This document shows, piece by piece, positions 3,927 through 53,941 of a DNA stretch of 64,000 nucleotides. Both the position numbers and the translations under genes were made by a program. The notes under the pieces are model-generated. The model was not told the origin of the DNA and made no database searches. It saw only the letters and a program-made list of their open reading frames with translations. The DNA comes from Klebsiella phage Miami. Within the stretch, counting starts at the first letter, position 1. Every line of letters starts with the position of its first letter. The stretch is from the sequence record MT701590.1, one strand, 5' to 3'.

Positions 3927-3927
3927 T

Positions 3928-3963
3928 AATACTCCTACTCCCGTATCGGGAGTAGGAGTATTA
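3928..3963. terminator. bidirectional terminator (CTCCTAC family) between convergent genes
   Basis: aatactcctactcccg-tat-cgggagtaggagtatt followed by agctttttgtttttt. Confidence 0.6.
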
Positions 3964-3975
3964 GCTTTTTGTTTT

Positions 3976-24000: not shown

Positions 24001-27000
24001 ACCAACAGTAAGGATCTTAGCTAACGACGTTAACCCACCTACAATAGCGGGCAGAGTAGTAATACCGAGAGTTAAGAATTTGGAGAGTTTAGCGCCAAGT
24101 CCGACGACTCCGCCCAAAATTGTTCCCATGGGGTTCTTAACAAGACCCAGAAGTCCATTAAGGAATCCGCCTTCTTTCTTCTCCCCATCTCGAGAACCAG
24201 AACCTCTCTCTCCCTCTCCATGACCGGCAAGATCGATAATAGCGTCTTGATACCGTGATTCACGTTCAGCTTTCGCTTTACGTTCCTTATCTTCTAAGGA
24301 GTTTAGGCGGACATCATCCGTGTTTCCCATTCGGCTTGTTTCATTAACAATATCAGCCTTGATATCCGGCATGTCGTTAATGTCATAACCAAACTTACGG
24401 CAAAGCAGAGCGTAAATACGATCGACCGAATTGGTAATAGGCGTATAGTCCGCGGTTACAAGATCATTGATCTTATCTCCAGCTCGCTTACCGTAACCTT
24501 TAGCTCGATCACCCAGTTTCCTACCCAGGTCAAGAAGTTTACCACCCATTACTCCCGTCATACGTTTGAGGGATTCTATTTTCATCCCCCCAGATGTAAT
24601 GAGCCCATCCTCGTATTCGGCTTGGGTAATAATGACGTCGCCGTTCTCATCATACACCGGTCCGTCGATATCTCTCCAACCCTTTACAGGAACAACGCTA
24701 CCATTCAAACGTTTGAAGTATTTACCGTTCTCAAAACCCTTCCTTGTCAGAACAGGGGAATCCTCTCCGACTCGATAAACATCCATTTGGGTTATTCGAT
24801 TGGCGATACCCTGACCCATCCCTTTCAATCGGTTAAGAGGATCTAACCAGTTAAAGAGTTTTAATCCGGCTGATTTCACCGCGTTTAAGCCACGAAGCAC
24901 GACGGCCTTGCCTTCGGCACTGAACAGTTTACCCGAAAGACGTTTAGCGGAGATCACGACCTTGGTTCCGAGATCAACGATCGATCCTTTGATCTCTTTC
25001 CAGCTGGTGATAATTTTCTTTAACACTTTGTCGTAATACTGACGGGCTCTGAGTTTACGCGCTTCGAGTATCGGATCTTCACTCTCCCCATCGTAAATGT
25101 CTTCATCGTCACTGACGTCTCTGGCGTCCGCCATACTACGAACTTTGGTATATAACGCCCAGGCTGCAGCACCGCCACCGATCAACGCCGCTGTTTTAGG
25201 ATCGTGAATCGCCAATCCCGCTAACCCACCTAACATCCCACCCAGCATCAGTGGTTCGTGAGCCAGCAGTTTATCCATGCCAGCACTGAAAATATCCTTA
25301 ATCCCACCAAGACTTTTAATGCGGTCGAGGATGGTTTTCTTCTGTGCGGTATCAGCGGCATCTTCAGCATCAGTTTTGGGCTTATTCACCTCGGCTGGCT
25401 GACGAGAAAGGATTTGTTTCAGGACTTCCAATTGTTCCTGATTAATATCCCTTATTCCCATTACAGAATCCGTTAAAGATTTAACTTGCTCTGGGCTTAA
25501 TGCATTTCCGTCTTGTCTACCAGGAATCCCGAGTTTAAGCTGCTCGGTGAGTTCCGATAGCGCGGTAACTAATTTACCGGAATCCTTCCCGGACAACCCG
25601 CGACGGTTATTGATAATGGTTTTCGAATTACCCCCACCCATTCCACCACGAGTAGGGAGAGGACCTACGTCATCCTCTTCGATAAGGCCTTCGTTACCAT
25701 TAAGCTCTGATTTTAATCGATCCCATATCGCATCGGTGTTAAAGAAATCTGACCCGTTTTCACTATTAATCAAATTCATTTCTCTTAATAGTGGATCGTA
25801 ACCAGCGTTTCGTAACAAATCGATTTGCTGAGAAATATTAGGGAGATAACCTTTGAGGTTTTTGGCTCGCAGACTAAGATCGGCCGCCAAACGTTTACTT
25901 TTAGCGGTCGGCATGTTCAACTGAGCTTTAATACCAGCCAGCCCAGATTTTTTAGCCGCTTCAATATGCTGGTCGGTTAGTCTGAACGACCCCCGCATCA
26001 CTTGTTCAATTTCTTTACGAATCGATGGGGTTAGACCGTCTTCGTCTTCCATCCCGAAATAGTTGAACGGGTTAAACCCTTTATCTTGGTCGACGTCTCT
26101 CGCCAAACGATAAGATAAGAAACGTTTAGCCTCTGGTGACAACGTTCCATTTTTGTCAATCGCAGAAACCATGTCGGACGTACCTGAGGCCAGTCCGCTA
26201 AATTCTCTACCGTTCAACAGATTACGTTTAACGGCATTTTGAGTTTGTTTATGACTTAAGAACTTCCCGCTACGGTAATCGAAACGTTCTTCTTTCAGGT
26301 TATCGTTACCCGTACGAATTTTTTCCAGGCTCAGATGAAGCTTAGCGAACCACCCAGGAATGATTTCATTTAACGTACGATCGGATTGACTGCTCCAGTA
26401 GCTGGGCTGAGTCAAATCCATCAAGTTACGTTTCTTGAGTTCGTACTGTTTACCACGGGAATCGTTGATATTAAAAGAAAGATCGTTTAATCTATTTCCC
26501 AGGAAATTTTTACCTGTTTGTTTTAAACGCCACGCTCTTTCACTTAACCGTTTTTCACCGGGAGCAAGTGAGTCAAGGTAATCGTCGTAGGTGGAAAAGT
26601 CTTCTTCGTAGTTAGCGTTATTGCGGAGAATGGTTCCTGCTAAACCAGCCGCGTTAGTTCCGGCGTATGACAGAACACTACCCAACTGTTCCAACTTGCG
26701 GTATTGCCGGCGGATGTTTTTGGCTTCTTTTGGATAGAGGGTCGCAAGTTTATTAATAAGCTTAGCGCCCTGCCCAGATTTAAAGAAAGCCGGTCCTCTC
26801 TCAATGACCTCGTTAGCTAGCATCTGCCCGATAATGGTTCCCATATTGAGACCCATTCCTTCGGACATCTCCATCCCCATTCTACCAGCGCCAACCATTC
26901 CGCTTAAACTAGAAAGCATCCCCTCTCTGGCTTCTTTACCGAACGTCTCGGACAGATAACCCATCACCCCACCGGACCTACGTCCAATTGTGGAGAAGAT

Positions 27001-27837
27001 AGAATCGCGTAATCTGCCTTTAGCCGCCATGGCCAGGGAAGTTTTCTCGTAATCGCTCTTACCTGAATTAAGAGTGATCTTTTTAAGCTCGTCAATCTGA
27101 CGATGCATCGAGGCTTCCATGAACTTGTAGTATTTAGCGTTGGTTAAATGCATCCGAGCCAATAAGTTGATTTTAACCGCATCGTTCTTAGCCTGGATTT
27201 TATTCTGGTAACGCAAAATGCCTTGAAGGGTGGTTGAGATTCCGCCTAACAGCGAATTGGTTGCTTGTTGCTGAGCTAATTGACGACCGCCAACTACCGC
27301 GGTCATGTTGTTGATAGCCCGCCCAATACCCACCATCGTTCCTGTCTGCTGGGCCGTAACTCCGCTTATAAAACCGGCTAAGCCATCTTCATCGACTTCT
27401 CCCATACTTGGATCAGAAGGTGTGTATCCTCCTTGATCCCAATGGCTAAAGTCCTTATTACTGAAGGTCTCCAACCCCTGGGCAATTTTATTAGGAACCT
27501 TGTCGCCGTGGCGGTCTAAGGTCATCTGAGCAATTGCCTGGAGATCTTCCACCATATCTTTTGATCCGGCTTTGACCTCACTTAGGATCTCCTGCTTCTT
27601 CCAATCAAACTCTCTTTTTAAATCAAAGACAGTCCCAAATGATTTTGGGAGGAGCATTTTAGCCGTTCTCAACCTACCTTCTGAACTTCCTATCGTACCG
27701 CTGTGGAGCTCACTGAGAAAACCACTCCCCATGCTCGCAAAGAAACCTTTTTTAGGTGCGTTATCGAAGTCGAAGTCGAAATCTATATCGCCGGCGAACG
27801 GGTCGTCTCCCCAATCGTCGAAATCATCTTTAGCCAT
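21031..27837 (-). CDS. giant virion protein (2268 aa) with a C-terminal lytic transglycosylase domain, phiKZ gp181-like
   Basis: Uninterrupted 6.8-kb ORF with an acidic DFDFDFD N-terminus and long Gly/Ala-rich segments. SLT motif ...ALANFESGGF...GWLYRGRGFIQLTG... lies about 230 aa from the C-terminus, matching the phiKZ gp181 (2237 aa) architecture. Confidence 0.85.
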   Translation of the reverse strand: MAKDDFDDWGDDPFAGDIDFDFDFDNAPKKGFFASMGSGFLSELHSGTIGSSEGRLRTAKMLLPKSFGTVFDLKREFDWKKQEILSEVKAGSKDMVEDLQAIAQMTLDRHGDKVPNKIAQGLETFSNKDFSHWDQGGYTPSDPSMGEVDEDGLAGFISGVTAQQTGTMVGIGRAINNMTAVVGGRQLAQQQATNSLLGGISTTLQGILRYQNKIQAKNDAVKINLLARMHLTNAKYYKFMEASMHRQIDELKKITLNSGKSDYEKTSLAMAAKGRLRDSIFSTIGRRSGGVMGYLSETFGKEAREGMLSSLSGMVGAGRMGMEMSEGMGLNMGTIIGQMLANEVIERGPAFFKSGQGAKLINKLATLYPKEAKNIRRQYRKLEQLGSVLSYAGTNAAGLAGTILRNNANYEEDFSTYDDYLDSLAPGEKRLSERAWRLKQTGKNFLGNRLNDLSFNINDSRGKQYELKKRNLMDLTQPSYWSSQSDRTLNEIIPGWFAKLHLSLEKIRTGNDNLKEERFDYRSGKFLSHKQTQNAVKRNLLNGREFSGLASGTSDMVSAIDKNGTLSPEAKRFLSYRLARDVDQDKGFNPFNYFGMEDEDGLTPSIRKEIEQVMRGSFRLTDQHIEAAKKSGLAGIKAQLNMPTAKSKRLAADLSLRAKNLKGYLPNISQQIDLLRNAGYDPLLREMNLINSENGSDFFNTDAIWDRLKSELNGNEGLIEEDDVGPLPTRGGMGGGNSKTIINNRRGLSGKDSGKLVTALSELTEQLKLGIPGRQDGNALSPEQVKSLTDSVMGIRDINQEQLEVLKQILSRQPAEVNKPKTDAEDAADTAQKKTILDRIKSLGGIKDIFSAGMDKLLAHEPLMLGGMLGGLAGLAIHDPKTAALIGGGAAAWALYTKVRSMADARDVSDDEDIYDGESEDPILEARKLRARQYYDKVLKKIITSWKEIKGSIVDLGTKVVISAKRLSGKLFSAEGKAVVLRGLNAVKSAGLKLFNWLDPLNRLKGMGQGIANRITQMDVYRVGEDSPVLTRKGFENGKYFKRLNGSVVPVKGWRDIDGPVYDENGDVIITQAEYEDGLITSGGMKIESLKRMTGVMGGKLLDLGRKLGDRAKGYGKRAGDKINDLVTADYTPITNSVDRIYALLCRKFGYDINDMPDIKADIVNETSRMGNTDDVRLNSLEDKERKAKAERESRYQDAIIDLAGHGEGERGSGSRDGEKKEGGFLNGLLGLVKNPMGTILGGVVGLGAKLSKFLTLGITTLPAIVGGLTSLAKILTVGLLGRRASDGVDDIVDAAGGASGRRRGRRTRGGRVGRGRAFKFGLAGLATAGLGMYLDATNEEHEGTNWKDVASNTLTAASAVSLGSSAMSAMGINLGIGSAIASGASAAGSAIVSGTGALATAVAPLLFNPVTLGIGAVAGAGYLIYKYYAKGKGSQFKLRMAQYGIKDVESDLAAKIRSAEEALREYVVVTAGVASIAKSAPLEQIFQSFIPQANDKGQQQAYFTWFNLRFKPIFLTYASAIDTAGYRDFETFDKSTDAKLYSTVSTINDRIGTINPYPYQIAAQFDEATPIMGKDQTINQVRLYLDELKSFNERHGRTAEGIEKEGVVTMKTSAEQVEKSEKAGWWSSLKMRMGGTYEDRSDIEEINKRYPVTKSVMEINITDLLPGGDKPLAGITALRLAAYGDTEHIPWRVEAVLKLERYCEDYISVIGNDARFTSTTGAVYNLFKNSFRITDDQANQWCTWFRDRFLPVCMAWVKYVRIMRGVKPSAGWKSMTATNAFDFAKELLGLKVNIGKTPTSVWEVKWSPFTNTTSGSITPQVKAIVNNLDTAAKNAKLNFGDKEVKASGAKEVVPYTSAHSMGEGGLNQAVATAATSDNVIAGGQPVINYKPITGNTDTSTVDLSGVTPVGGSGGGDKGVSVPQKAAEQLIMKEMIKAGFTDPRLIAEMLALANFESGGFKNTAEGMNYKPGRLLEIFPGRVKSMAQAQQIVAGGPQAIANAVYGGRMGNSGPNDGWLYRGRGFIQLTGKDNFRAASQYVGKDLVKNPELVSTDPEVMAKTLIWYLSNGSNGKRLQSIVKNNSFEYAAQGLNPNGLPDMPARTRLYQQYMKRLTSNELTVDPNAGATPSSSGETPPSSVSSVSPDAKPPTMKSENVGTANSVAAVSAITTPSVNQGPKPIGAVPSTPVSEGSVAYKSDPANPLNRVKVPTEQSTSAPPTPLAKPVQQPDPVATAQVQAQGRTNDLLAQLLKEIQNQKAPDPRMGYTSK

Positions 27838-27857: not shown

Positions 27858-29471
27858 ATGCAACCTACTAATATTACGTTATTGAACCCAAACAAAGTGG
27901 CTTGGGCTCTCATGAAAGCCGTGACGTCAACAGACGTCCATGAGGGGATGACCAACAACCTTCATGAAGATGGTTTATACTCTCCAACAATCTTCGGTCG
28001 TGTCGGTACCGACCAACGAGATAAAACTCAATCTTACATCAATGTTAAGATTCCTGTCTTCAACCCGACTTATTTTAAGGCTTTGATTGGGTTAAAGGGT
28101 TTGTATCTCGGAATAATCAAAGGGACGGAATACGCCCTTTGGGACGCATCAGAACGCGACTTCATAAAATCAAACCTCCTGGAAGGAGAAACCGGCTACG
28201 GTTTCTTTATGCGTCACTTTTACGACTTAGAACCTAAGTTAAACGAAAGTTATAAACGCAAACAGCGCGTAGAACTCTTTAATAAATTTAAAGACATCGC
28301 GTTGACTAAAAACATCATTGTGCTGCCGGCTGGTATTCGTGATATCCAGGTTGAACCCAACGGCCAGATCGTGGAACCTGAAATAAATGATTTCTATCGT
28401 AAACTGATCTTCCGTAGTCGCAGCGTGGTTATCCAGGAAGGTGAAGAAGATAACCCGATTTACGATAACATCCGTTGGGCGATTCAAAGCGTGTTCAACG
28501 ATATCGACGATTATATCTTCCGGCTGATGGAAGGTAAGCGTGGATTCTTACAGCGCCGAGTCTCAACTCGTGGTGTTGTTGGGGGTACTCGTAACGTTAT
28601 TACCGCTCGTAAAGTTTCTGTTGCTGATGCGGATGATGATAATGGGGTTGACGTTAACACCACAGATATCGGGATGTATCAAGCGCTGTTGGGTTTCCAA
28701 TACGTTGCACGATATGCGTTACTTAAAGGTTTCTTAAGCCGCGTGTTTACGGTAGGGTCAAGTACGGCTAAACTCGTCGACCCCAGAACCTTCGAATATC
28801 AATACGTTGAAGTTGAGAGCAACATTGTTGACAAATGGTTGTCGGCCGATGGACTCACCGCTCTGTTCAACGGATTCGGAACGAGGCACTTGCGTCATAA
28901 ACCGATCAAAATTAATGGCTATTACATGGGCCTGACCTATGATGACGGTAAATATGTCAAGTTACTCGGTGACGTAACCGAACTTCCTCCTGGGTTTGAT
29001 AAGAAGTTCTGCAAACCATTGACTTACATGGAACTCTTCTATTTAAGTTGTGTCGAAGAAATAGAAAAGAGAATGCTTCAGGTTACCCGCTATCCGATCA
29101 CCGGGATGGGTTCTATCTATCCCAGCCTCATCAAAATCAAAACGACAACTAACGCCGAAAAAAGAATCATCTTAGATGATTACTGGGAAGAAGGTTATCG
29201 TTGCACATACTACCCAGTCCGAGAAACTAAACCGGATTATTTCGACGCCATGAGTGTCGATGGCAGTCGGTTAGGTTTATTGGGTGGGGACTTCGATGGC
29301 GACCAACTTAACAGTAACTCCATCAACGGAGAGGATGCTATTGCTGAAGCTAAAGCTTTAATGGGCAGACGCGATTACTATATCACCGGCACGGGGCAGT
29401 TCCTTTACAGTCCAACGGTGGAACCTCACGAATTCTTATTCCGAAATCTCAGTAACGGACTCAACCTATGA
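27858..29471 (+). CDS. virion RNA polymerase, beta-prime subunit N-terminal fragment (split multisubunit RNAP)
   Basis: 537-aa ORF with LGGDFDGDQLN (the beta-prime Mg-binding NADFDGD motif) near its C-terminal end, as in the phiKZ beta-prime N-terminal fragment gp180. It sits next to the gp181-like giant gene as in phiKZ. Confidence 0.6.
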   Translation: MQPTNITLLNPNKVAWALMKAVTSTDVHEGMTNNLHEDGLYSPTIFGRVGTDQRDKTQSYINVKIPVFNPTYFKALIGLKGLYLGIIKGTEYALWDASERDFIKSNLLEGETGYGFFMRHFYDLEPKLNESYKRKQRVELFNKFKDIALTKNIIVLPAGIRDIQVEPNGQIVEPEINDFYRKLIFRSRSVVIQEGEEDNPIYDNIRWAIQSVFNDIDDYIFRLMEGKRGFLQRRVSTRGVVGGTRNVITARKVSVADADDDNGVDVNTTDIGMYQALLGFQYVARYALLKGFLSRVFTVGSSTAKLVDPRTFEYQYVEVESNIVDKWLSADGLTALFNGFGTRHLRHKPIKINGYYMGLTYDDGKYVKLLGDVTELPPGFDKKFCKPLTYMELFYLSCVEEIEKRMLQVTRYPITGMGSIYPSLIKIKTTTNAEKRIILDDYWEEGYRCTYYPVRETKPDYFDAMSVDGSRLGLLGGDFDGDQLNSNSINGEDAIAEAKALMGRRDYYITGTGQFLYSPTVEPHEFLFRNLSNGLNL

Positions 29472-32400
29472 GCGTATTATACCAACAGTTCTTCCGCAAT
29501 TTTGTTCTTAGGAAAAAACAAGAAATTACAAATCCTAAGTTTCACCATCTGACGGATATGGTGTTGCCGAGAGAATCGGTAATGATGTATCTACCGAAGA
29601 CGCAAGAAGATATCGGCCCGAGTACCGAGGAGCCCTTAATAGGGACTTACCCTGATGGGGTTAACATTTATTTCAACAGTCTTTATATAACCCCCATCGG
29701 AAGAACTCGACCCGTTCCCTTTAACGAAAAGCAATCTATACAGCTTTATCGTAAAAGCCATTTCAAATACAACTGGGCGAGGACGTTGTCCAACTACCTG
29801 AGTCGTCGTCAGGAACTGTTGGTAAACAACATAGCGATGGGACCTCATCGTCACCGTTATGTCTTTACTCGCTTTGTTCAGTTCGAACGAGCTTACAACC
29901 AACTGGCTTCTGGGATTGAAGCGGTTAAACAAATGAGTAAGGAAACGACCCGCCATCAATACTGGCGAATAGAACTTCCTCCAGCCATCCCCGATTATCG
30001 TCAGCTACTGGTAGCAGTCGATCATTATAAGAAGGCGTTCAAAGACGGCGTTTATACCACGACTGACAATCAGGCGGTACTCCCGTTTAAGGGTTACGGT
30101 TCTTATTGGATCATGGACTGGTATCTCTTCTTGATAGGCGAAAAGAACTACAGTCTGTTTAATCGCTTAGATAAAGAAGAAATGGATAAACTCCACATCA
30201 TCTTTAGTCATAATGGACTCAGCTGGGTAGTTAACCTTGGTATCGTCTCTCAATGGATGGAAGAACTTAACGACAAGCACGGCAATCCCACCAGTATGCG
30301 TGTTAACGCGGCTAAACGGTTCCTGCTTGGATTTAGGGCTCTGATAGCGGGCGGCACGCTAAGTGAAACCATAGAGGAGAAACCTCATGCCGCAGAGAAT
30401 GTCGGATTGGGTACTGGAACGCCAGAAGAGGAAAGAAGAAGCCAGGAAGTTAATAAGGAATCAGAAGAAGAACCGCTGGATCTCGATGAGTCTGAAGAGA
30501 TTACTGATCAGTCTGTTACTATGCTTGATCTTTTCATGGGCAGCAAAAAGGCTGATACAGAATCTGATGATGACCAAGGAGGAGAGGATTCAGGAGGAGC
30601 TGATGAGAATCACGGAGAAGAGTGGGCTGCAGCGGTCGACGATGAATTACTTTATAACGCCGAAACAGAAGGACTAGGGGAAACCAAGAAAGTTATTTTC
30701 AGTACCCCGGAATCTGGCATCCTGAGAGCCTTAGAGCAAAGAGCCAAGGCCGGGACATTAACTGTTGCGGAACAACGTTATTACACTAATCTCGCGCAAT
30801 CATACAAAACAATCAAAATGCCTAACGGTGAAAGTCTTGAAAGTTTTGTTAAGATCGATCAGGCCAAACTCCGCCACCTTCCTGCTAAAATTGCTCCTGA
30901 GATGAGAGGGATCATCGACCCTTCTCAGCTACAAAGTAGAGCGACAAATCTTAAAACGAAATACTCTGAAGAATTCCTTAACCGGGATATCGCCGGGATG
31001 ATTCTTAACATTCAGAACGCCGGTATCGTTTTAACCGACCTGAAACGTGAACGTATCGTCAATGCGGAATCGGCTTACGACGTTTATACCATGAACGTTC
31101 ATCCTGTTGGCGGATCGCCTAAGACCGCAATGTTCCGTATCCCCAAAATTGACAAAGACGGAACCTTCACTGTCGATGGGGTAAAACAACATCTTCAACT
31201 TCAGCGTATGGAAATACCGATTCGTAAGATAAACTCGGAGCAGGTTGCTTTGACGAGTTATTATGACCGCAAGATCATGATGTCTCGTTCTACCAAGGTC
31301 GCCGACGATTACGGATTGTGGCTGAACAAGCAGCTTATTCTGTTGGGCGAAGCCGGTAAAGTATCCGGGGTGTTGGGCGATGTCTATAATCGTAGTTACG
31401 CTGTTCCTCGTACTTATTCTGCGTTAGCCAAACGGTATCGGTCATTAAAGGCGGGTGGGATTGAATTCAACTTCGATCTTTCTAGTCTTGTTGGATCAGA
31501 GAAAGAAATCAATAAGCTGATTTCTCCTAACTGGGTTCCGGTGGCTAAAGAAGGTGACGACTTCATCTTTATGGATGATGGCGGTAACCTTTATAAAGAT
31601 AAGACACACATTGGTTCTTTCGAAAGCCGCTGTGGAATTGACACGACGAAAGCCCCAGTCGATATCGTTACGGTGAATGTAAACGGATACGCCTTCCCTA
31701 TCGGGGTAGTGCTGGCTTACTACTTCGGATTCGACGAACTTCTTAAAGCACTCAATGCTGACTATCGGACCGTTCCGGCCGGTGAGAAAGTTCGGATGGG
31801 TCAGGACGAATACGCGATAACCTTTAACGATGAAACGCTCATTTTCAACAGACGGGATAGTTTAACCGCACTCATTATGGGTGGGTTCCGGAAGTTAGCG
31901 AATTTGAGTAACTTCTCTCGTTATGACCTAAACACGAAAGGTGTGTGGGTGCCGGCTATCGGGGATAAGAAAGTCAAACCGGGTCATTTTGATGAAATGC
32001 GTTTGATGTTCGAAATGTTCATCGATCCTATCACCAAATCTGAACTGGTTAAAAGGGGTTATCCGACCGAGCTTCATTATCTCATGATCGAAGGCGTCAA
32101 AATGCTGAACACCGATCGGACTGCTCACGAGATAGAATTAACTGAGCAACGTTTCGTTGGGTATGAACGTTTCGCCGGTCGGGTCTATAACGAAATTGTT
32201 AAGTCGACTCGTCAATTCAGGAATAAAGGTAATGACAAACGTTTCACCTTCGATATGAACCCTGAAGCGGTTATCATGAGTATCATCACCGATACAAGTG
32301 TAAACCTAGTCGAAGAGGTTAACCCCATCCACGAAATCAAAGAACAGGAAGTTGTTACCTTTGGTGGTACTGGTGGGCGAAGTGAAACGACAATGGTCAG

Positions 32401-33724
32401 ACGTACACGTGGTCAGCAAGAGAACTATGCTGGGGTTATCTCCGAGGCTGGTAAAGACTCCGGTAAAGTTGGGTTCGTGAGTTACTTAACGAGCAACCCT
32501 AAGATCGCCGATTTCCGTGGTAACGTCGACCTAAGCATGCCTGACACTCTGAGCGGCAGACTGTCGGTAACATCCAACCTTTTAGCTCACTCGACCTCCG
32601 ATGACCCCAAACGTGCTCTGTTCTCCGGGGTACAGCAAAGCCAGGGGGTATCTGCGACTAACTATCAGACCAACTGGTTACGCACAGGGGATGAGCTGGT
32701 TATCGCACACCGGACATCTGAGCTTTATTCTAAACCGGCTAAACTCGACGGTAAAGTAATAAAGCTTACCAAAGAAGGTTTAGTGGTCGAATACAAGGAT
32801 GGAACGACGGACAGCTATCCGTTAGGCTTGACTATCGGTAGTGCGTCTGGTGAATTCCACAGACACACAAGGGTTACCGATTTAAAAGTCGGCGATAGTT
32901 TCAACGCCGGAGACATTATCGGTTGGGATGAAATGTACTTTGAAAGGGATTTGGCTAACCCTAATCAGGTCGCGTGGAAATGCGGGGTAATGGTGAGGAT
33001 TGCCTTTGTTGAGAATCAGTTCACGTTTGAAGACTCCATTGAGGTTTCTAAAGACTTCGCTGAGCAGACGAAAACGCCTTATTTGAAGTTGAAAGAATTC
33101 TCTTTAGACTTCGAACAAACTCTCGTCCCTCACGTAGAAGTCGGGTCGGAAGTCGACATGGACGCGATTTTATGCTCGATAGAGGATCCCCACGTAAGTG
33201 GTCTGGACGATTCTGATGACACTTTCTCAGGATTAGAGCGTTTAGGGGTTAAACAAATTCGGTCTAACCATCATGGCCGTGTTGTTAAAATTGAGTGTGT
33301 TTATAACGGTTCAATTGAAGACATGTCAGATAGCCTGAAAGGGTTTGTGACTAAGTTAGATAAAGAACGTCAACAGCTCAATAAGGTCACTCATACCGGG
33401 ATCGTTAACGGTAACGTTGGGGGAAACACGTATGTTAAGAAAGCCAGTGTTGAACCTAATCGGGTTACGGTTAAAATCTTTATTGAGGATCTCAATAGCT
33501 CCGAAACCGCCGATAAATTTGTAGTCGGTAACCAGATGAAAGGCACCGTGGGGAATATCGTGAACTACACAATGCGCACACTGGATGGCCGTATTGTCAA
33601 GATTCGATTCTCATTTAAATCGATGTTCAACCGTATGGTTCTGAGCTTACGAGATAAAATGGGTATCAATGAAGTTAACGCCAACCGCACTTCGGCAGCA
33701 GTTAAAGCTTTCAGAGGAAAATAA
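29468..33724 (+). CDS. large protein (1418 aa) translationally coupled to the beta-prime N-terminal fragment; possibly another virion RNAP subunit
   Basis: ATGA overlap with the upstream gene. Long ORF with an acidic insertion (EEEPLDLDESEE...); no canonical beta or beta-prime motif recognised by eye, so the function is inferred from context. Confidence 0.5.
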   Translation: MSVLYQQFFRNFVLRKKQEITNPKFHHLTDMVLPRESVMMYLPKTQEDIGPSTEEPLIGTYPDGVNIYFNSLYITPIGRTRPVPFNEKQSIQLYRKSHFKYNWARTLSNYLSRRQELLVNNIAMGPHRHRYVFTRFVQFERAYNQLASGIEAVKQMSKETTRHQYWRIELPPAIPDYRQLLVAVDHYKKAFKDGVYTTTDNQAVLPFKGYGSYWIMDWYLFLIGEKNYSLFNRLDKEEMDKLHIIFSHNGLSWVVNLGIVSQWMEELNDKHGNPTSMRVNAAKRFLLGFRALIAGGTLSETIEEKPHAAENVGLGTGTPEEERRSQEVNKESEEEPLDLDESEEITDQSVTMLDLFMGSKKADTESDDDQGGEDSGGADENHGEEWAAAVDDELLYNAETEGLGETKKVIFSTPESGILRALEQRAKAGTLTVAEQRYYTNLAQSYKTIKMPNGESLESFVKIDQAKLRHLPAKIAPEMRGIIDPSQLQSRATNLKTKYSEEFLNRDIAGMILNIQNAGIVLTDLKRERIVNAESAYDVYTMNVHPVGGSPKTAMFRIPKIDKDGTFTVDGVKQHLQLQRMEIPIRKINSEQVALTSYYDRKIMMSRSTKVADDYGLWLNKQLILLGEAGKVSGVLGDVYNRSYAVPRTYSALAKRYRSLKAGGIEFNFDLSSLVGSEKEINKLISPNWVPVAKEGDDFIFMDDGGNLYKDKTHIGSFESRCGIDTTKAPVDIVTVNVNGYAFPIGVVLAYYFGFDELLKALNADYRTVPAGEKVRMGQDEYAITFNDETLIFNRRDSLTALIMGGFRKLANLSNFSRYDLNTKGVWVPAIGDKKVKPGHFDEMRLMFEMFIDPITKSELVKRGYPTELHYLMIEGVKMLNTDRTAHEIELTEQRFVGYERFAGRVYNEIVKSTRQFRNKGNDKRFTFDMNPEAVIMSIITDTSVNLVEEVNPIHEIKEQEVVTFGGTGGRSETTMVRRTRGQQENYAGVISEAGKDSGKVGFVSYLTSNPKIADFRGNVDLSMPDTLSGRLSVTSNLLAHSTSDDPKRALFSGVQQSQGVSATNYQTNWLRTGDELVIAHRTSELYSKPAKLDGKVIKLTKEGLVVEYKDGTTDSYPLGLTIGSASGEFHRHTRVTDLKVGDSFNAGDIIGWDEMYFERDLANPNQVAWKCGVMVRIAFVENQFTFEDSIEVSKDFAEQTKTPYLKLKEFSLDFEQTLVPHVEVGSEVDMDAILCSIEDPHVSGLDDSDDTFSGLERLGVKQIRSNHHGRVVKIECVYNGSIEDMSDSLKGFVTKLDKERQQLNKVTHTGIVNGNVGGNTYVKKASVEPNRVTVKIFIEDLNSSETADKFVVGNQMKGTVGNIVNYTMRTLDGRIVKIRFSFKSMFNRMVLSLRDKMGINEVNANRTSAAVKAFRGK

Positions 33725-47823: not shown

Positions 47824-49531
47824 TACCAGCACCACATCGACCACATCAAGTACGAGTGTTGCGGCGACGGGTCCTCAGTTACCTAACTCGAATGATCTAC
47901 TCACCCCACTCGATATTTCCAACCTTTACGATCCGGATACGGTAGCCGATTCTGATGCGTCAAAATACATCGTTGGTCGTGAAGGCCAAACGGTCATAGA
48001 CGGATTGAACCAACGAGCTTACGTCATTACTCACGTTGGGACTGAAGATGCGAAATACAAATCAACGTTAAAACGGATAGGGTTTGTTACGGATAGCGAC
48101 GACAACTCCAGTGACATCATCGGTTTACCGGGACGCTTTGCCGGCAATGGTGTTTTGGGAATCGACTACAGTGTCAGACCTCCTCGGGCTGTCATCGATG
48201 GTCGTGTATGGGCTCCTGATGCGGCCTACGGTTTGCTTTATAAAGGCGTGGTTATCGGTGATAGCGGTCAGGTCATTTCTGTTCAATACGCAACTAATGG
48301 TGATTTGATTTCTAATCAGGTCCCGACTAAATTAGCTGCGGTTAACAACATGACCAACCACAGTATTTTCACCACTACTGCTTTTTCGGTGACTCAAACG
48401 GCTGACGAACTCCCGGACGGAAGTTTGTGCACGCTGGTGTTCTTCGATGCGGCCGGTAACATGATTCCCGAACCTTATGAACTTGGCGTGATGCACACTG
48501 CGTTGCTGAGAGATCATCAGATCGGGATCAAGTATGTTTCGGCTATTGAACTGATATCTCCTTGGTTCACCGATACGACCGATCCTACTACGCTGAACAT
48601 TCCTATCAACGTTGCGATGAGCTCGGTTCAATTCTCTGCGCGCATCCATTATAACGATGGATCAACCAAAGAGCAATTGATTGACGGGACCAAATGTGCG
48701 ATCATCGGGCTCAATGAATACAAACCTACTACGGTAGGTCAGCGTGCTTCGATCGTACTTCGGTATTCGTTCGATGAGGATGAACAGGCTTTAATTGCTA
48801 CACCTAATTATCCAGACATGATCACCCAGGCTTATCAGATCGTTTGTACTCAGGTTAACGGCGCTTACTCTCCAAAACTCTACACTTATCCGGTGTGGAA
48901 CGGAACAGGGTATTCGCTCAAACATTACCTGTACGATCTTACCCGCGGATATGCAACTGACGTTACTCAGCATGTTACACTCAACGACACGTCGCCAGCC
49001 TTCCAGCCGGCTAACTATGGCGTTCAGCAAGACATGGTGTTTAACCTGACGCTGTCAGACGTATCTTCGACGTTTAAAGCGTGGACGCTGGTACAGCATA
49101 CTTCTATTACGTTGTATAAAGCGAATACCGGGACGGGTCGTCGTTGGGCTATCCAGTACTCTTCTGCGAATAACCCTTACGTCGCTTATAACGTCGGGTA
49201 TACCGAAGCCAATGGTGTTCAGTCCATTAACCTGGCTGGCTCCATCCTCACGATTTCTGATTGGTTGAATCGACTCTACTATCCGGTAGAACCATTGATC
49301 GATACCACGAAAGAATCGGCGGCTCTGGTTCCTAACTATATCCGGTTGGTTGACACTAACGGGGTTACTCACGACCTTGAAATCAACGATTGGAATAAAC
49401 CTCAAGCGCTCACTTCTCCTGTTGCAAGTGGTCAAACCCTCTTCCTGCAATGGATTCAGAAATCAGAGAACGGGGCCGAACTCCAATTGGCGACCACGGG
49501 TGTTGTTGTAGACGTCGCTCCGAGCAATTAA
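47816..49531 (+). CDS. hypothetical structural protein (571 aa)
   Basis: Start overlaps the upstream stop (ATGTTTGA); Ser/Thr-rich N-terminus. Confidence 0.55.
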   Translation: MFDTSTTSTTSSTSVAATGPQLPNSNDLLTPLDISNLYDPDTVADSDASKYIVGREGQTVIDGLNQRAYVITHVGTEDAKYKSTLKRIGFVTDSDDNSSDIIGLPGRFAGNGVLGIDYSVRPPRAVIDGRVWAPDAAYGLLYKGVVIGDSGQVISVQYATNGDLISNQVPTKLAAVNNMTNHSIFTTTAFSVTQTADELPDGSLCTLVFFDAAGNMIPEPYELGVMHTALLRDHQIGIKYVSAIELISPWFTDTTDPTTLNIPINVAMSSVQFSARIHYNDGSTKEQLIDGTKCAIIGLNEYKPTTVGQRASIVLRYSFDEDEQALIATPNYPDMITQAYQIVCTQVNGAYSPKLYTYPVWNGTGYSLKHYLYDLTRGYATDVTQHVTLNDTSPAFQPANYGVQQDMVFNLTLSDVSSTFKAWTLVQHTSITLYKANTGTGRRWAIQYSSANNPYVAYNVGYTEANGVQSINLAGSILTISDWLNRLYYPVEPLIDTTKESAALVPNYIRLVDTNGVTHDLEINDWNKPQALTSPVASGQTLFLQWIQKSENGAELQLATTGVVVDVAPSN

Positions 49532-49543
49532 GATTCGTTATCC

Positions 49544-49573
49544 TAACTACCGGTCTGAAAAGACCGGTAGTTA
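49544..49573 (+). terminator. hairpin after the 571-aa gene
   Basis: taactaccggtc-tgaaaa-gaccggtagtta. Confidence 0.45.
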
Positions 49574-49614
49574 TATTTTATATCGAGACCGAGACAAACC
49601 GACAGGATAAAAAC

Positions 49615-52600
49615 ATGTTTGCAAGTAAAGACGAATTAGAACTACATCTTGCAAGAGAAAAACTTGCTATGATAGGCGCGACAGAAAGTCAGCTCCCCGA
49701 ATACCTGCTCGATGACGACACAGAAGCGCTTCCCATCAGGACCCCAGAAGAGTTGCTTCTAGCCCATTATCGAGAAGATACGTTAAGCGCGATCAAAACG
49801 GTCAGGTTCTTAAAGGACTTCGAACGTTATAACGCTAAACCGGATCTGACGACGAAGAACATCTCTTTCTTAAAGGTTGCTGAAATCTTTAGACTGATGG
49901 GGATAAAGAATTACTATTTCTGCCTCCAGCTCAACAATCCGTTGCTGATAGGGGTGGATCCTTACGACCCCAACCTGACAGATGAACAAAAATTCATGAT
50001 CCTCCAGGAGTGCCGTGAAAACTTCTGGTATTTCCTCCGTGAAGTACTTCATCTGAGCGGTGGTATTCAGTTCCAGGCAAACAGAGCAAACATCTGTTTC
50101 TTATGGTGTTATTTGTGCCACGTCAACACCATGCTAATCATTCCAAGGCAATTCGGGAAAAATTCTAAATTAGATTCTCTTGTAAAAATACCCAATGGCT
50201 GGAAGAAAATGGGGGATATGCGCAAGGGTGACGTAGTATCCACTCCTGATGGTAAAACGGCTAAAGTTACTGGAGTTTATCCCCAAGGTGTCACGCCTTT
50301 ATATAAAGTTACTTTTAAAGACGGAAGAGAATCTTACGTTGGGTCTGATCATTATTGGACAGTATGGGATCCGGGTAAGGGCGATGGCGGGGTCTGGCGA
50401 ACACTGACCACACTCGAGTGCCAACAACGCATGACCGAGATGAAGAAAGCGCATAACTATCTTTCCGTTCCTTTGGTTCAGCCTGATAATGATCCAGATA
50501 AGAAACTTGCCATTCATCCTTATGTTCTAGGTGTTTTACTGGGTGACGGATGCATCTCTAATAAAAGCGTTGTTGTAGCTAAACCAGATAAAGAGATGTT
50601 CGATAAGGTTACAGGGCTCATCCCTGAGTCACTGGAAACCTCATGGGTTGATGATAAGAGCTTTATCATCAGACGTAAGCCGACTAACATAACCCAGAAC
50701 AATCAACTTAAAGATGATTTAACCAATCTCGATTTATTCGGATTGCGGTCCTGGGAGAAATTTGTTCCTACCGATTACTTAAATGGTTCTTATCGCCAGC
50801 GTTTAGAGTTGCTACAGGGTTTACTTGATACTGATGGTCACGCAGGTACCGGTGGTAACATTGAGTACTGTACAACATCTCCTAAACTTGCTAAAGATTT
50901 CGTTTACCTCGCTCGTAGCATCGGGGCAATATGTTCTTGTAAAGAACGCCACACGTATTACACACATAATGGCGAGAGACGCCAGGGGAGATTATCTTAT
51001 CGCATTAGTGTTCGACACACACAGCCTTGGGAACTCTTCACGTTAAGTCGTAAACGAGATCGTTTAGTTGACAAAACACGAGGGTTAAAATTTAACAGCC
51101 GTCTAACCATGCGTTCCATCGAGTATGTAGGGGAAGAAGAGACTCAGTGCATTGAAGTGGACCATCCTGATCATCTTTACATCATGGATGATTTCGTCGT
51201 CACTCACAACACGGTTTCTGCCCAGAGCATTATGTTCTGGTTAACTTACCTAACCGGGCAGTCTTATGAGTCCCACTTAATCACCCTGAAAGACGATAAC
51301 CGTAGTCAGTTCGTAGAGGCGTTAAAGGGTATTCGTAACAACATCCCGAGTTACTTAACCAACGTAGGGTGGCGAGATAAGGATAGCGGTAACTCGTTAA
51401 CCTATAGTGCGTTTGGGGATGATAAGAAGAACATCTTCCGTATTAGCGTCCCGCAAATCGGTAGAGAAGCCGCTCGTAACGTTGGTCGTGGTTTGACTAT
51501 CAAAACCCGTATGATCGACGAACCGGCATATATCAACTTCATGGAAGAGATACTTAACGGTGCAGGTCCTAGTACGCTAACGGCTCGTGCTAACGCCAGA
51601 AGAATAGGCGAACCCTATGGGACGGGATTCATTACCACGCCTGCGAGTAAAACGACGGCAAGCGGCGAATACATGTACAACATGTTGATGGATGCGACCG
51701 AGTGGCGAGAAACGTTCTTCGACAGTTTTAACGAGAGTCATCTGTACCAGCGTTTGATTAAAGCGAGTCCTGTGGAGGGAATCACCAGCCCTACAGTAGG
51801 AATGGTTTTCAACTACTTGCAGCTGGGTAGGAATAAGGACTGGGTTAAGAAAACCATAGACGAGTTAAAGTTAAGTTTAGCCGAAGCGAAGATCGACTTA
51901 CTGTTAATGTGGGACGACGCAAGTAAAGGTAAACTTTTCGACGACTTAACCCGAGAAGCGTTAAACGAGGGTAAACGAGGGATACTCTGGAGTCAGGAAG
52001 TAGGGAGCACGGGTTTGTTTATCGACTGGTTTATTACGCCAGAAGAACACACCCGGATCATAACTGGCAACAGTCAGACCTTTTACGTCGTTGGATGCGA
52101 TACCTCTGCTGCGCAAAACCGAGATGCCTGTACAGTAGTGATAAGGGATGTCATGGATGGTAAAGTCGTTGGGGTGGGTCGTTATCCGATAGCCTACTTA
52201 ATGGACGTTGGTGAGGTACTACAAACGATCCTGTTAGAGATTAAGAACAGCTTACTGATCATCGAGCGTAACTTCGCGCATCACATGATCGACCAACTGC
52301 TCGTTAGTCTTCCTGCATTGGGGATCGATCCCTTTAAACGTATCTTTAATCAGATCATACAAGATCCGGTTAAGTACGAAAAAGAAATGATCGAGTTTAA
52401 ACAACGTAATTTCGCTAACAGAGACAGTCACTTCTATCTGAGGTTCAAACACCTGTTTGGGTTCGTTACCAATGCCAAAACGCGTGACGAAGTATATAGT
52501 TTTATCCAAGAAGCGGTAGGAACCACTGGAGATAAAATTTATTATACTAAACTCATCGACGAACTGGTTAACCTCAAAGAGAAAGGCGGGAGGATCGACC

Positions 52601-53013
52601 ACGAAAACAATAAACACGATGACCTGGTTATCGCTTGGTTGTTAGGATTCTGGTTCTTGAAACTGGGTAACAATAAAAGTGAATACGGAATTCCTCCAGG
52701 CATTAGTTTGAGTAAAATCAGCTTAATGCGTGTTGGGGACGATAAGAATGAGGAAACCAACAGTGCGCACAATGAAGCGATGGTTGCACTTTATCGTCGT
52801 AAAGTTGAAGAGCTGAGTGACAGACTTATTAAAACCACCGACAATACCGTAGCTCAAAGGATAGAGTACATGATTGACAAACTCAGCAGCATGATCCCTC
52901 AGGATAAGCGTAAGAGTTTGACCATCGATGAAATCGTTAGGAAAGCCAAGGAGGAAAGAAGTCGTCGAGTATTGGAAGCACGTAAGTTACGCAGTCGTTA
53001 CGCATACATGTAA
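49615..53013 (+). CDS. terL: terminase large subunit interrupted by an intein
   Basis: Walker A PRQFGK...T split by an insertion. Table start 49450 overlaps the upstream gene; refined to ATG 49615, which follows agga and lies after the hairpin. Confidence 0.8.
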   Translation: MFASKDELELHLAREKLAMIGATESQLPEYLLDDDTEALPIRTPEELLLAHYREDTLSAIKTVRFLKDFERYNAKPDLTTKNISFLKVAEIFRLMGIKNYYFCLQLNNPLLIGVDPYDPNLTDEQKFMILQECRENFWYFLREVLHLSGGIQFQANRANICFLWCYLCHVNTMLIIPRQFGKNSKLDSLVKIPNGWKKMGDMRKGDVVSTPDGKTAKVTGVYPQGVTPLYKVTFKDGRESYVGSDHYWTVWDPGKGDGGVWRTLTTLECQQRMTEMKKAHNYLSVPLVQPDNDPDKKLAIHPYVLGVLLGDGCISNKSVVVAKPDKEMFDKVTGLIPESLETSWVDDKSFIIRRKPTNITQNNQLKDDLTNLDLFGLRSWEKFVPTDYLNGSYRQRLELLQGLLDTDGHAGTGGNIEYCTTSPKLAKDFVYLARSIGAICSCKERHTYYTHNGERRQGRLSYRISVRHTQPWELFTLSRKRDRLVDKTRGLKFNSRLTMRSIEYVGEEETQCIEVDHPDHLYIMDDFVVTHNTVSAQSIMFWLTYLTGQSYESHLITLKDDNRSQFVEALKGIRNNIPSYLTNVGWRDKDSGNSLTYSAFGDDKKNIFRISVPQIGREAARNVGRGLTIKTRMIDEPAYINFMEEILNGAGPSTLTARANARRIGEPYGTGFITTPASKTTASGEYMYNMLMDATEWRETFFDSFNESHLYQRLIKASPVEGITSPTVGMVFNYLQLGRNKDWVKKTIDELKLSLAEAKIDLLLMWDDASKGKLFDDLTREALNEGKRGILWSQEVGSTGLFIDWFITPEEHTRIITGNSQTFYVVGCDTSAAQNRDACTVVIRDVMDGKVVGVGRYPIAYLMDVGEVLQTILLEIKNSLLIIERNFAHHMIDQLLVSLPALGIDPFKRIFNQIIQDPVKYEKEMIEFKQRNFANRDSHFYLRFKHLFGFVTNAKTRDEVYSFIQEAVGTTGDKIYYTKLIDELVNLKEKGGRIDHENNKHDDLVIAWLLGFWFLKLGNNKSEYGIPPGISLSKISLMRVGDDKNEETNSAHNEAMVALYRRKVEELSDRLIKTTDNTVAQRIEYMIDKLSSMIPQDKRKSLTIDEIVRKAKEERSRRVLEARKLRSRYAYM
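50161..51210 (+). mobile_element. intein (about 350 aa) with a LAGLIDADG homing endonuclease, inserted in the terminase P-loop
   Basis: Block A-like NSKLDSLVKIPNG, two LAGLIDADG motifs (LLGVLLGDGCIS and LQGLLDTDGHAG), and C-terminal block G DDFVVTHN followed by a +1 Thr. Removing it gives RQFGK-TVSAQS (GKT Walker A). Confidence 0.65.
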
Positions 53014-53031: not shown

Positions 53032-53074
53032 TACCATGATGTAAACCTCAAATAAACTTTTAGGAGTGAACATC

Positions 53075-53290
53075 ATGAATAAATACAACGTTACCTTTAT
53101 CCGTCACGACGATACTCTGGTAGCCAACGTTCCTTGTGTCAACGAGGAAAAGGATGTGTTACTCGGAGGTGGGTTGGTCGATTCTCGTTTAGGTCATCTC
53201 GAAGTCGATATCAAAACGGGAACTCTCGTTCTCAGATCCAATTGCGCTAACGATTCACTTACGGCGGAATGTCGGCTGCATTACATTTAA
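53075..53290 (+). CDS. small hypothetical protein (71 aa)
   Basis: Table start GTG 53066; ATG 53075 preferred, following taggag at 8 nt. Confidence 0.4.
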   Translation: MNKYNVTFIRHDDTLVANVPCVNEEKDVLLGGGLVDSRLGHLEVDIKTGTLVLRSNCANDSLTAECRLHYI

Positions 53291-53294
53291 CATT

Positions 53295-53328
53295 ATACCC
53301 CTACGGCGATTACGCCGTAGGGGTATAG
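53295..53328. terminator. bidirectional terminator between convergent genes
   Basis: tatacccctacggcg-atta-cgccgtaggggtata followed by gtttttatttagttttt. Confidence 0.6.
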
Positions 53329-53335
53329 TTTTTAT

Positions 53336-53941
53336 TTAGTTTTTAATGTAATCCACCAACGCTTCAAAATCACCGTCGTAAAAATACGGTTTAATTTTGA
53401 TTAAAGAACAAGCCGCCGACAGAGCATTTTCGTAACGATGAACGAATCGCTCAAAATACTCTCGGTTGAGAAGACGGGTTTCTTGATCATCTAAAATCGA
53501 TCTGGATCCCGCTCTTTGTAAAAACGTATCGTGATCGATTTTTACAAAGATAAGTTTATCGGGGTACATTTGGGTGTTGAATATTTTTAAAGCCTTTACG
53601 TTGCGTTCTATAACACTGTAAAGACCTATTCGACCATTACCCTGATAAACCGCAGTAGAAATAAAACAGCGATCGGAGATAACTGTCTTCCCTTGATTTA
53701 AAGCAGGAACAACAACTTTATCTCCTAACTCTATTCGCTGAGCAATAGCGAGATAAAGTTTTGCTTCTTCACAAATCCCGTTATCGATAATGAGATTACG
53801 GATGGTTAACAAAGAGTCCGGAGACTTAGCCGGTTCTTCCACTTGAAGAACGTCGTAATTATCGGCCTTCAATCTCTCTGTTAACTGTTTAGTTAATGTT
53901 GACTTACCCGCTAAGTCCATGCCTTCGAGAACAATGTACAT
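53336..53941 (-). CDS. tmk: thymidylate (dTMP) kinase
   Basis: MYIVLEGMDLAGKSTLTKQL P-loop and DRCFISTAVYQG, the LID/DRY-region equivalent of Tmk. Confidence 0.85.
   Translation of the reverse strand: MYIVLEGMDLAGKSTLTKQLTERLKADNYDVLQVEEPAKSPDSLLTIRNLIIDNGICEEAKLYLAIAQRIELGDKVVVPALNQGKTVISDRCFISTAVYQGNGRIGLYSVIERNVKALKIFNTQMYPDKLIFVKIDHDTFLQRAGSRSILDDQETRLLNREYFERFVHRYENALSAACSLIKIKPYFYDGDFEALVDYIKN

Follow-up and report, generated by a model that had tools for sequence, protein, structure and literature searches.

The large terminase subunit (TerL) of Klebsiella phage Miami, encoded at positions 49615-53013 (+) of the 64,000-nucleotide stretch of record MT701590.1 that we analyzed (the window), is interrupted by a 350-residue insert that we hold with high confidence to be a class 3 intein, with a LAGLIDADG endonuclease, seated in the Walker A loop of the protein. 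The initial annotation, made from the sequence alone, had placed a 350-residue intein with an unusual first residue in this P-loop, and on both counts it was borne out: the insert falls exactly between the Lys and the Thr of Walker A (PRQFGK/T, Lys182 and Thr533; a slash marks an insertion point or junction), and its first residue is Asn, which is not a nucleophile. The parts of the gene and of the intein are as follows.

49615..53013, + strand: TerL precursor gene, 1132 residues plus stop
49615..50160, + strand: N-extein, residues 1-182, ending PRQFGK (first half of Walker A, 50143-50160)
50161..51210, + strand: intein, 350 residues, Asn1 to Asn350 (precursor residues 183-532)
50161..50199, + strand: block A, NSKLDSLVKIPNG, residue 1 being the non-nucleophile Asn
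50323..50364, + strand: block B, GRESYVGSDHYWTV, with His64 (B:10) at 50350-50352 and Trp66 (B:12) at 50356-50358
50518..50553, + strand: first LAGLIDADG motif, PYVLGVLLGDGC, intein residues 120-131, catalytic Asp129
50806..50841, + strand: second LAGLIDADG motif, ELLQGLLDTDGH, intein residues 216-227, catalytic Asp225
51139..51183, + strand: block F, ETQCIEVDHPDHLYI, with the class 3 nucleophile Cys330 (F:4) at 51148-51150
51190..51213, + strand: block G, DFVVTHN, and Thr+1: Thr348 (G:5), His349 and Asn350, then the C-extein Thr that completes GKT
51211..53010, + strand: C-extein, residues 533-1132
51499-51525, + strand: Walker B and catalytic Glu, IKTRMIDEP, in the C-extein
51628-51645, + strand: TTP motif in the C-extein
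52090-52110, + strand: nuclease-domain motif VGCDTSA in the C-extein
52591-52623, + strand: nuclease-domain motif RIDHENNKHDD in the C-extein

The insert and its host protein

The junctions were set at K/T by alignment to intein-free relatives, as had been proposed at the outset. In an alignment of nine TerL sequences, those of Vibrio phage pTD1 and Pseudomonas phage OBP, both intein-free, read PRQ[QS]GK/TV without a gap, and the TerLs of six other phiKZ-like phages have an insert at the same point, each ending THN/T; VP4B and further intein-free homologs likewise read PRQxGK/TV, gapless. Among 28 TerL loci from IMG/VR, 19 have the insert, eight have an empty K/T site, and one divergent locus reads GK/S, with no intein found in it. 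Deletion of the insert restores RQFGKT, as predicted in the initial annotation, and makes the protein co-linear with its intein-free homologs; the joined flanks of the window give ATTCCAAGGCAATTCGGGAAA/ACGGTTTCTGCCCAGAGCATT as the intein-less site, and the spliced junction peptide would read ...QFGK-TVSAQSIMFWLTYLTGQSYESHLITLK (RQFGK-TVSAQ). The related terminases are without the region and hence not co-linear across it, and an insertion domain specific to the family, named beforehand as the finding that would speak against an intein, was not seen. Its presence is instead patchy, with exteins 89.6% identical between pTD1 (no intein) and Aphrodite1 (intein) and 79.9% identical between OBP (no intein) and N1M2 (intein). 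The strings PRQFGK/NSKLDSLVKIPNG, DDFVVTHN/TVSAQS and LQGLLDTDGHAG are all present in the product; the first LAGLIDADG string had been given, by a small transcription slip, as LLGVLLGDGCIS and actually reads VLGVLLGDGCIS. A group I intron or a frameshift was rejected, as the reading frame runs through unbroken.

The insert is a bipartite intein, in which a HINT domain (intein residues ~1-105 and ~313-350) has a two-motif LAGLIDADG endonuclease nested inside it. For the endonuclease, the Pfam model LAGLIDADG_3 scored 31-35 bits against a cut-off of 22.5 and covered intein residues 213-267; the remaining Pfam/NCBIfam yield consisted of a sub-threshold Hom_end match and weak matches to intein-bearing NCBIfam models. 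When the 350 residues were compared to the PDB with phmmer, matches were obtained to the DnaB-1 inteins of M. smegmatis (6bs8, E = 1.2e-8) and M. chimaera (6rix and 6riy) and to the gp41-1 intein; these covered the two ends of the query and left the 250 residues in between unmatched. From residue 4 on, the query stays in register with the class 3 DnaB-1 inteins, and the W, C and T residues coincide. An AlphaFold model of the intein, built on 52 sequences, had a mean predicted local distance difference test (pLDDT) score of 94.3 and a predicted template modeling (pTM) score of 0.93. When this model was compared to the PDB with Foldseek, the best matches were TliVMA, PI-SceI and PI-PfuI (E = 1e-17 to 1e-11), with I-DmoI and then Hedgehog and BIL domains lower down, and the splicing domain alone best matched the class 3 DnaB-1 mini-inteins (target TM 0.78-0.83). 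The endonuclease fold, which matches PI-SceI, PI-PfuI and I-DmoI, has two LAGLIDADG helices and catalytic acids in an alpha-beta-beta-alpha-beta-beta-alpha pseudo-dimer. A HINT fold, blocks A, B, F and G, a C-terminal His-Asn and a +1 nucleophile are all present, THN/T being invariant, and our HINT assignment draws on the PDB sequence matches, the predicted fold and the conserved blocks. The prediction of an intein with a LAGLIDADG endonuclease was therefore upheld by family model, PDB matches and predicted structure. A profile of the 52 relatives (among them the window's own intein) gave 445 bits and E = 5e-135 on the TerL open reading frame (ORF), and a search with it found no second intein of this family in the window. 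Taken together, these matches go far beyond chance.

That the interrupted gene encodes the large terminase, as had been proposed, is supported by a match of the ORF product to PHROG phrog_2, 'terminase large subunit' (E = 2.4e-43), and to several further TerL PHROGs. With the insert removed, tblastn identified homologs in 313 phage records, nearly all from phiKZ-type jumbo phages, and many of the matched genes are annotated as terminase large subunit. In the nine-sequence alignment P177, R178, Q179, G181, K182 and T533 are invariant, as are the hydrophobic-D-E Walker B (IKTRMIDEP), TTP, DTS and RIDH...HDD. An hhalign comparison of a profile of six intein-free homologs with T4 gp17 set PRQQGKTV on SRQLGKTT in a match that was weak (E = 0.023, probability 2%) and placed RG...IDE on RGNSFAMIYIDE (IDE on YIDE), so that the Walker A and Walker B of gp17 were in register. 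On the PHROG matches, the annotation of homologs and the order of the motifs, we take the host gene to be that of TerL, the putative packaging ATPase-nuclease. In public records, intein-bearing TerL orthologs are labeled 'hypothetical protein', 'ATP-dependent DNA helicase', 'DarB-like antirestriction' or 'gyrA: DNA gyrase subunit A', and this mislabeling was probably caused by the likeness of the intein to inteins in those named proteins.

Splicing class and competing readings

Class 3 inteins are defined by the lack of Cys, Ser or Thr at position 1 and by co-varying Trp B:12, Cys F:4 and Thr G:5; their +1 residue is usually Thr or Ser, and the block F Cys is the obligate first nucleophile (PMC2807308; PMC5050341). 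The window intein, with Asn1, His64, Trp66, Cys330, Thr348, His349, Asn350 and Thr+1 (Thr533), has the full class 3 signature, and its C330, I331, D334 and Y340 match the key block F residues of the MP-Be DnaB intein (Cys, Ile+1, Asp+4, aromatic+10; residue importance from PMC2807308). The initial annotation had left a choice between a class 3-like mechanism and a shifted junction, and the first of these is the one to which the evidence points, as the Trp/Cys/Thr triplet and His B:10 are present and aligned with those of the class 3 DnaB-1 inteins. The same residues are kept across the family. Of 103 full-length relatives from metagenomes, all have His B:10, Cys F:4, Thr G:5, His G:6 and Asn G:7, and 102 have Trp B:12; the -1 residue is Lys (90) or Arg (11), and the +1 residue is Thr (74) or Ser (28), i.e., one or the other in 102/103. 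We also compiled 21 distinct inteins at the TerL site from GenBank phages and 19 IMG/VR contigs, all phiKZ-like. All six catalytic residues are invariant in this set, and residue 1 takes ten identities (N/E/Y/F/L/P/Q/A/D/M), never C, S or T; position 1 is simply unconstrained within the terminase lineage.

Three other readings of the insert were weighed. A class 1 intein with its junction shifted by one would start at Ser184 as nucleophile and leave Asn183 behind (GKN-T), and it could draw on the Ser at position 2 of both alleles found among close relatives (NSKL and LSKL) and on the existence of Ser1 inteins. Its product, however, would have an extra residue in Walker A, where every intein-free homolog reads GK-T, and what was left over would differ, Asn in some phages and Leu in sisters whose exteins are 99% identical. 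Position 2 elsewhere in the family is mostly Gln, or Leu or Val, with no conserved nucleophile, the alignment to the class 3 DnaB-1 inteins sets Asn183 on their residue 1, and the Trp/Cys/Thr triplet is conserved. We reject the shifted junction because a variable residue would remain inside GK-T and because the Ser184 position is not conserved, and consider it very improbable. Also rejected, and equally slight in our estimation, is the possibility of a class 2 (KlbA-like) intein, in which Thr+1 would attack the N-terminal junction directly, with no block F thioester: a non-nucleophile at residue 1 and a Thr at +1 would suit it, but class 2 inteins are by definition without the triplet (PMC2807308), which is invariant across the family here, and the nearest solved relatives are class 3.

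The least probable reading, in our view, is that of a domesticated or dead insertion which does not splice, the terminase either working with the insert in place or this gene copy being non-functional. That parts of these inteins can degenerate is evident from the decayed endonuclease motifs of TerL inteins in most other phiKZ-like phages. The splicing residues are nonetheless invariant in the 21 TerL inteins, even in those with a decayed endonuclease, as would be expected only if splicing is still needed; the insert parts the adjacent Lys and Thr of the P-loop; and there is strong purifying selection, with ratios of nonsynonymous to synonymous divergence (dN/dS) of ~0.02 in the exteins and 0.01-0.19 in the intein.

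Several points weigh against a spliced class 3 intein in a terminase. Asn1 occurs in 0/103 of the metagenomic relatives, 93 of which have Ala, and it is conceivable that Asn1 slows splicing. Pfam/NCBIfam scans of the precursor, the intein and the spliced extein identified no Hint or intein-splicing domain and no terminase family, so that of the Pfam check suggested in the initial annotation the LAGLIDADG_3 part gave a match and the Hint model was silent, though a HINT domain is present by the other evidence. The extein had no match in the PDB by sequence search or by a search with a six-sequence profile, and the assignment as a terminase ATPase leans on the PHROG models and on the weak hhalign match to T4 gp17. 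The intein is found in all six close relatives, and because of this no empty target site for the endonuclease is known in this lineage. Lastly, while the junctions, anatomy and fold of the insert, its conserved catalytic residues and the purifying selection on it are shown here, splicing, the order of its steps, the branched intermediates and endonuclease activity are inferred.

The steps expected of a class 3 intein here follow from the established pathway for that class. The 129-kDa precursor would fold, and Cys330 (F:4), with His64 as its activator and Trp66 and Thr348 holding it in place, would attack the Lys182-Asn183 bond to form a branched thioester, from which the N-extein would be handed to the hydroxyl of Thr+1 (Thr533). 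Cyclization of Asn350 would release the intein, and an O-to-N acyl shift would then produce a normal GK-T peptide bond with the P-loop RQFGKT intact, the predicted products being a 782-residue terminase of 89 kDa and a free 350-residue intein of 40 kDa. Residue 1 (Asn) would take no chemical part, and because of this it would be free to vary among relatives. The freed intein would be a site-specific endonuclease that cuts intein-less terminase alleles of co-infecting phages, with repair after cleavage copying the intein in (homing). Unspliced TerL has 350 residues between two adjacent residues of the P-loop, and therefore packaging should depend on splicing. Such a dependence would be consistent with the strict keeping of the splicing residues where the endonuclease has decayed.

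Alleles, mobility and the endonuclease

Six phages have exteins that are 98-99.6% identical and between them carry two intein alleles, one with Asn1 (the window and KPN8) and the other with Leu1 (YC1, phiKp_32, BUCTxx100 and VB_ZK_P1). We compared window positions 50161-51210 with positions 3546-4595 of the YC1 locus (L011) and with loci L012, L013 and L015+L014. Identity between the alleles is 81% at the protein level and 77% at the DNA level, and their synonymous divergence (dS) is ~1, saturated in the first 100 codons, against dS of ~0.1-0.25 in the surrounding exteins. The window and YC1 differ at 236 of 1050 bases in the intein and at 65 of 2346 in the exteins (Fisher p = 2e-71). The divergence is patchy, being concentrated in residues 1-63, 131-193 and 259-288; the stretches separating these are nearly identical, synonymous sites included. 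Such a pattern is the mark of recombination between two old intein alleles in co-infecting phages and not of rapid evolution in place. Within the endonuclease, the patches that diverge coincide with the predicted beta-strand segments that follow each LAGLIDADG helix; in the LAGLIDADG enzyme family such segments contact DNA.

The N-extein of the Stenotrophomonas phage BUCTxx100 (L013, 101-646) has dS of ~0.6-0.7 relative to the other phages, among which dS is ~0.1, and is a second mosaic patch in the TerL gene. The recorded host of BUCTxx100 is Stenotrophomonas, yet it is ~91% identical in DNA to Klebsiella phages. For the Raoultella phage VB_ZK_P1 (PV662128.1), the linear record opens in the middle of the terminase gene, and its first annotated coding sequence (48-2852) is a truncated TerL; when the end of the record is joined to its start (L014 + L015), an intact 1132-residue precursor results.

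Relatives of the intein are widespread, occurring in 828 phage records; like its patchy presence among close relatives and its base composition, they speak for a mobile element. Beyond this phage group, the nearest inteins share 35-42% identity along their whole length and are located at the GK/T or GK/S sites of PhoH, DnaB, SNF2-type and other ATPases. Related class 3 inteins were also observed in PhoH-like proteins after a motif M/L-R-G-R (P0057, P0061, P0063, P0076, P0085, P0088, P0091, P0097, P0107, P0109, P0115 and P0116, the last reading M-R-G-K) and before T or S; this site differs from the GK/T P-loop, and the family therefore has a second, non-P-loop insertion site. The G+C content of third codon positions (GC3) is 0.39 in the intein and 0.51-0.53 in the exteins, and codon frequencies of intein and exteins correlate at 0.45, a contrast that suggests a different origin or a different selection on codon use. 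In a neighbor-joining tree the TerL inteins were not one clade; this tree has long branches and no support values and was not relied on. A protein-database search with the intein was unusable as a survey of terminases, all of its matches being of at most 613 residues with no TerL precursors of ~1100 residues, not even the 99.7%-identical protein of KPN8.

Both catalytic Asp residues of the LAGLIDADG motifs (GDG and DTDG) are intact in the window/KPN8 allele, in the YC1-type allele and in Klebsiella phage N1M2. In EL, RisingSun, Aphrodite1, FishSpeaker, D3 and all of the IMG/VR inteins at least one of the two motifs has degenerated, and these inteins are 30-55 residues shorter. The window and KPN8 inteins differ by one nonsynonymous and 28 synonymous changes (zero and 12, respectively, in the endonuclease part), indicating that the endonuclease is under purifying selection. 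Between the two alleles dN/dS is 0.12-0.19, and purifying selection acts on both.

It is possible, if rather unlikely, that the intein is more than a passenger, serving either as an interference endonuclease or in a redox-timed maturation of the terminase. An intact, selected endonuclease and two shuffled alleles would fit interference competition, in which the terminase gene of co-infecting intein-less relatives is cut, and the intein may in that case reach DNA inside the phage nucleus by riding on the terminase precursor. An intron-encoded endonuclease of the nucleus-forming phage PhiPA3 reportedly acts in interference competition. As to maturation, a redox-sensitive Cys330 might make it conditional, so that splicing times the onset of packaging; the class 3 M. 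smegmatis DnaB-1 intein is described as an oxidative stress sensor (PMC6195587).

Gene limits, neighboring genes and known systems

The ORF in the six-frame listing spans 49450..53013 (+), and the real TerL gene is 49615-53013 (+), encoding 1132 codons plus stop from the ATG at 49615. The extent and the 1132-residue product given in the initial annotation agree with the evidence for this start and with the homolog alignment, as all of the aligned TerL homologs start at the Met equivalent to ATG 49615. The upstream 55 codons, from the ATG at 49450, overlap the preceding virion-protein gene. Two features lie ahead of the start.

49544..49573, + strand: terminator-like hairpin, 13-bp stem then T-run, 3' of the upstream virion-protein gene and ~40 nt before ATG 49615
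49604..49607, + strand: AGGA, ribosome-binding-site-like, 7 nt upstream of ATG 49615

Because the hairpin sits in between, we place the start of TerL at 49615 rather than 49450. The KPN8 record has the coding sequence begin at the counterpart of the 49450 ATG, with the result that it overlaps the gene before it. Downstream, a strong hairpin at 53292-53329 (17-bp stem with nine G-C pairs, then a T-run) separates a convergent pair, a small ORF at 53066-53290 (+) and a thymidylate-kinase-like gene at 53336-53941 (-), and is likely a bidirectional terminator. A thymidylate-kinase-like gene also adjoins TerL in pTD1, Aphrodite1, N1M2, Sureiya and pEt-SU.

The phage itself is clearly phiKZ-like, judging by its TerL, its RNA polymerase subunits and its matches to solved phiKZ proteins. 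The window TerL shares 62.5% identity with its counterpart in pTD1, a phage classified by NCBI in the Gorgonvirinae, Chimalliviridae; the genes at 27858-29471 and 29468-33724 (both +, with a 4-base overlap) both match phage 'RNA polymerase beta subunit' PHROGs, the pair being the split multisubunit RNA polymerase typical of phiKZ-like phages; and window proteins match the solved phiKZ proteins PHIKZ182 and PHIKZ027 in the PDB. By this relatedness to the Chimalliviridae, together with the polymerase and the phiKZ protein matches, the phage would be nucleus-forming, as the initial annotation had it. Two large ORFs were considered as chimallin candidates and rejected, their PDB matches being phiKZ-type virion proteins. 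A 2268-residue ORF at 21031-27837 (-) matches PHROG 3201 ('tail fiber protein') end to end and has an endolysin-like segment at residues 1931-2143, features suggestive of a giant cell-wall hydrolase associated with the virion.

For annotation, the mature products of the gene are predicted to be a 782-residue terminase and a free 350-residue endonuclease, and packaging is predicted to hinge on splicing after translation by way of an internal cysteine. The phiKZ-like TerLs constitute a natural class 3 series in which residue 1 has at least ten identities and the catalytic residues are fixed, a series that could help in studying the contribution of position 1 and in designing inteins indifferent to the identity of their N-terminal residue. 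That otherwise near-identical phages have two intein alleles is a mark of recombination among jumbo phages infecting the same cell.

The novelty implied in the initial annotation was overstated, as many phiKZ-like phages have an intein at the same site, phage EL (a 2005-era record) among them, and the record of the Klebsiella phage YC1 ortholog already carries the automatic note 'Phage terminase, large subunit @ intein-containing'. The EL record names the gene ORF011, and InBase reportedly lists a 'PhiEL ORF11' intein. Among the papers accessible to our search of the literature, none was found on inteins in the terminases of Chimalliviridae, phiKZ-like phages or phage EL, the matches concerning MIJ3 PolB, MarsHill GyrA and the RaK2 terminase; the assignment to class 3, the series of residue-1 identities and the mosaic of two alleles may be undescribed so far. 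Terminase P-loops have been known since 2010 to house class 3 inteins (PMC2807308), and a 2025 survey reported 287 class 3 inteins in actinobacteriophages, largely in terminases, and discussed nucleotide-binding sites as a route between host proteins (bioRxiv 10.1101/2025.01.02.630785).

Comparable to the window intein in mechanism are inteins of DnaB, namely the class 3 prototype of mycobacteriophage Bethlehem (MP-Be) and the DnaB-1 inteins of M. smegmatis and M. chimaera (6bs8, 6rix), which also have no nucleophile at residue 1 (PMC2807308; PMC7664689). Class 3 DnaB inteins share with it His B:10, Trp B:12, Cys F:4, Thr G:5, His-Asn and Thr+1, as well as insertion directly after the P-loop Lys of an ATPase. 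The DnaB-1 inteins differ in their host protein, DnaB as opposed to a phiKZ-type terminase, and in residue 1, which is Ala and not Asn; their identity to the window intein is low, the match consisting of ~65 N-terminal and ~25 C-terminal residues. The solved DnaB-1 structures are mini-inteins without an endonuclease, whereas the window intein has a full LAGLIDADG domain, as does that of MP-Be DnaB. PI-SceI, PI-PfuI and TliVMA share the two-domain architecture, but are class 1 (Cys1), reside in V-ATPase or ribonucleotide reductase, are 13-16% identical and have extra DNA-recognition regions.

In location, the TerL inteins of mycobacteriophages and actinobacteriophages are comparable, being concentrated in the ATPase domain (PMC5050341; bioRxiv 10.1101/2025.01.02.630785). 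Their TerLs belong to another terminase family, whereas that of the window is phiKZ-type, has no Pfam terminase model and comes from jumbo phages of Gram-negatives. Insertion between the P-loop Lys and Thr is 'classic' in mycobacteriophage TerL, with class 3 inteins at sites c, d and e (PMC5050341); that study gives no class for the intein at the K/T site (TerL1-a), the site at which the window has a class 3 intein. Also comparable are the same-site TerL inteins of EL (ORF011), Erwinia phage RisingSun, Vibrio phage Aphrodite1, Klebsiella phage N1M2, Aeromonas phage D3, Shewanella phage FishSpeaker and YC1, which have the same class 3 residues and THN/T end. Same-site inteins of phiKZ-like phages are 28-43% identical to that of the window (81% for the YC1-type allele); most are without the catalytic LAGLIDADG Asp, and residue 1 differs in nearly every lineage. 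The window intein is a clear but ordinary example of the well-described class 3 kind, one that would not surprise a specialist and that leaves the understanding of inteins as it was.

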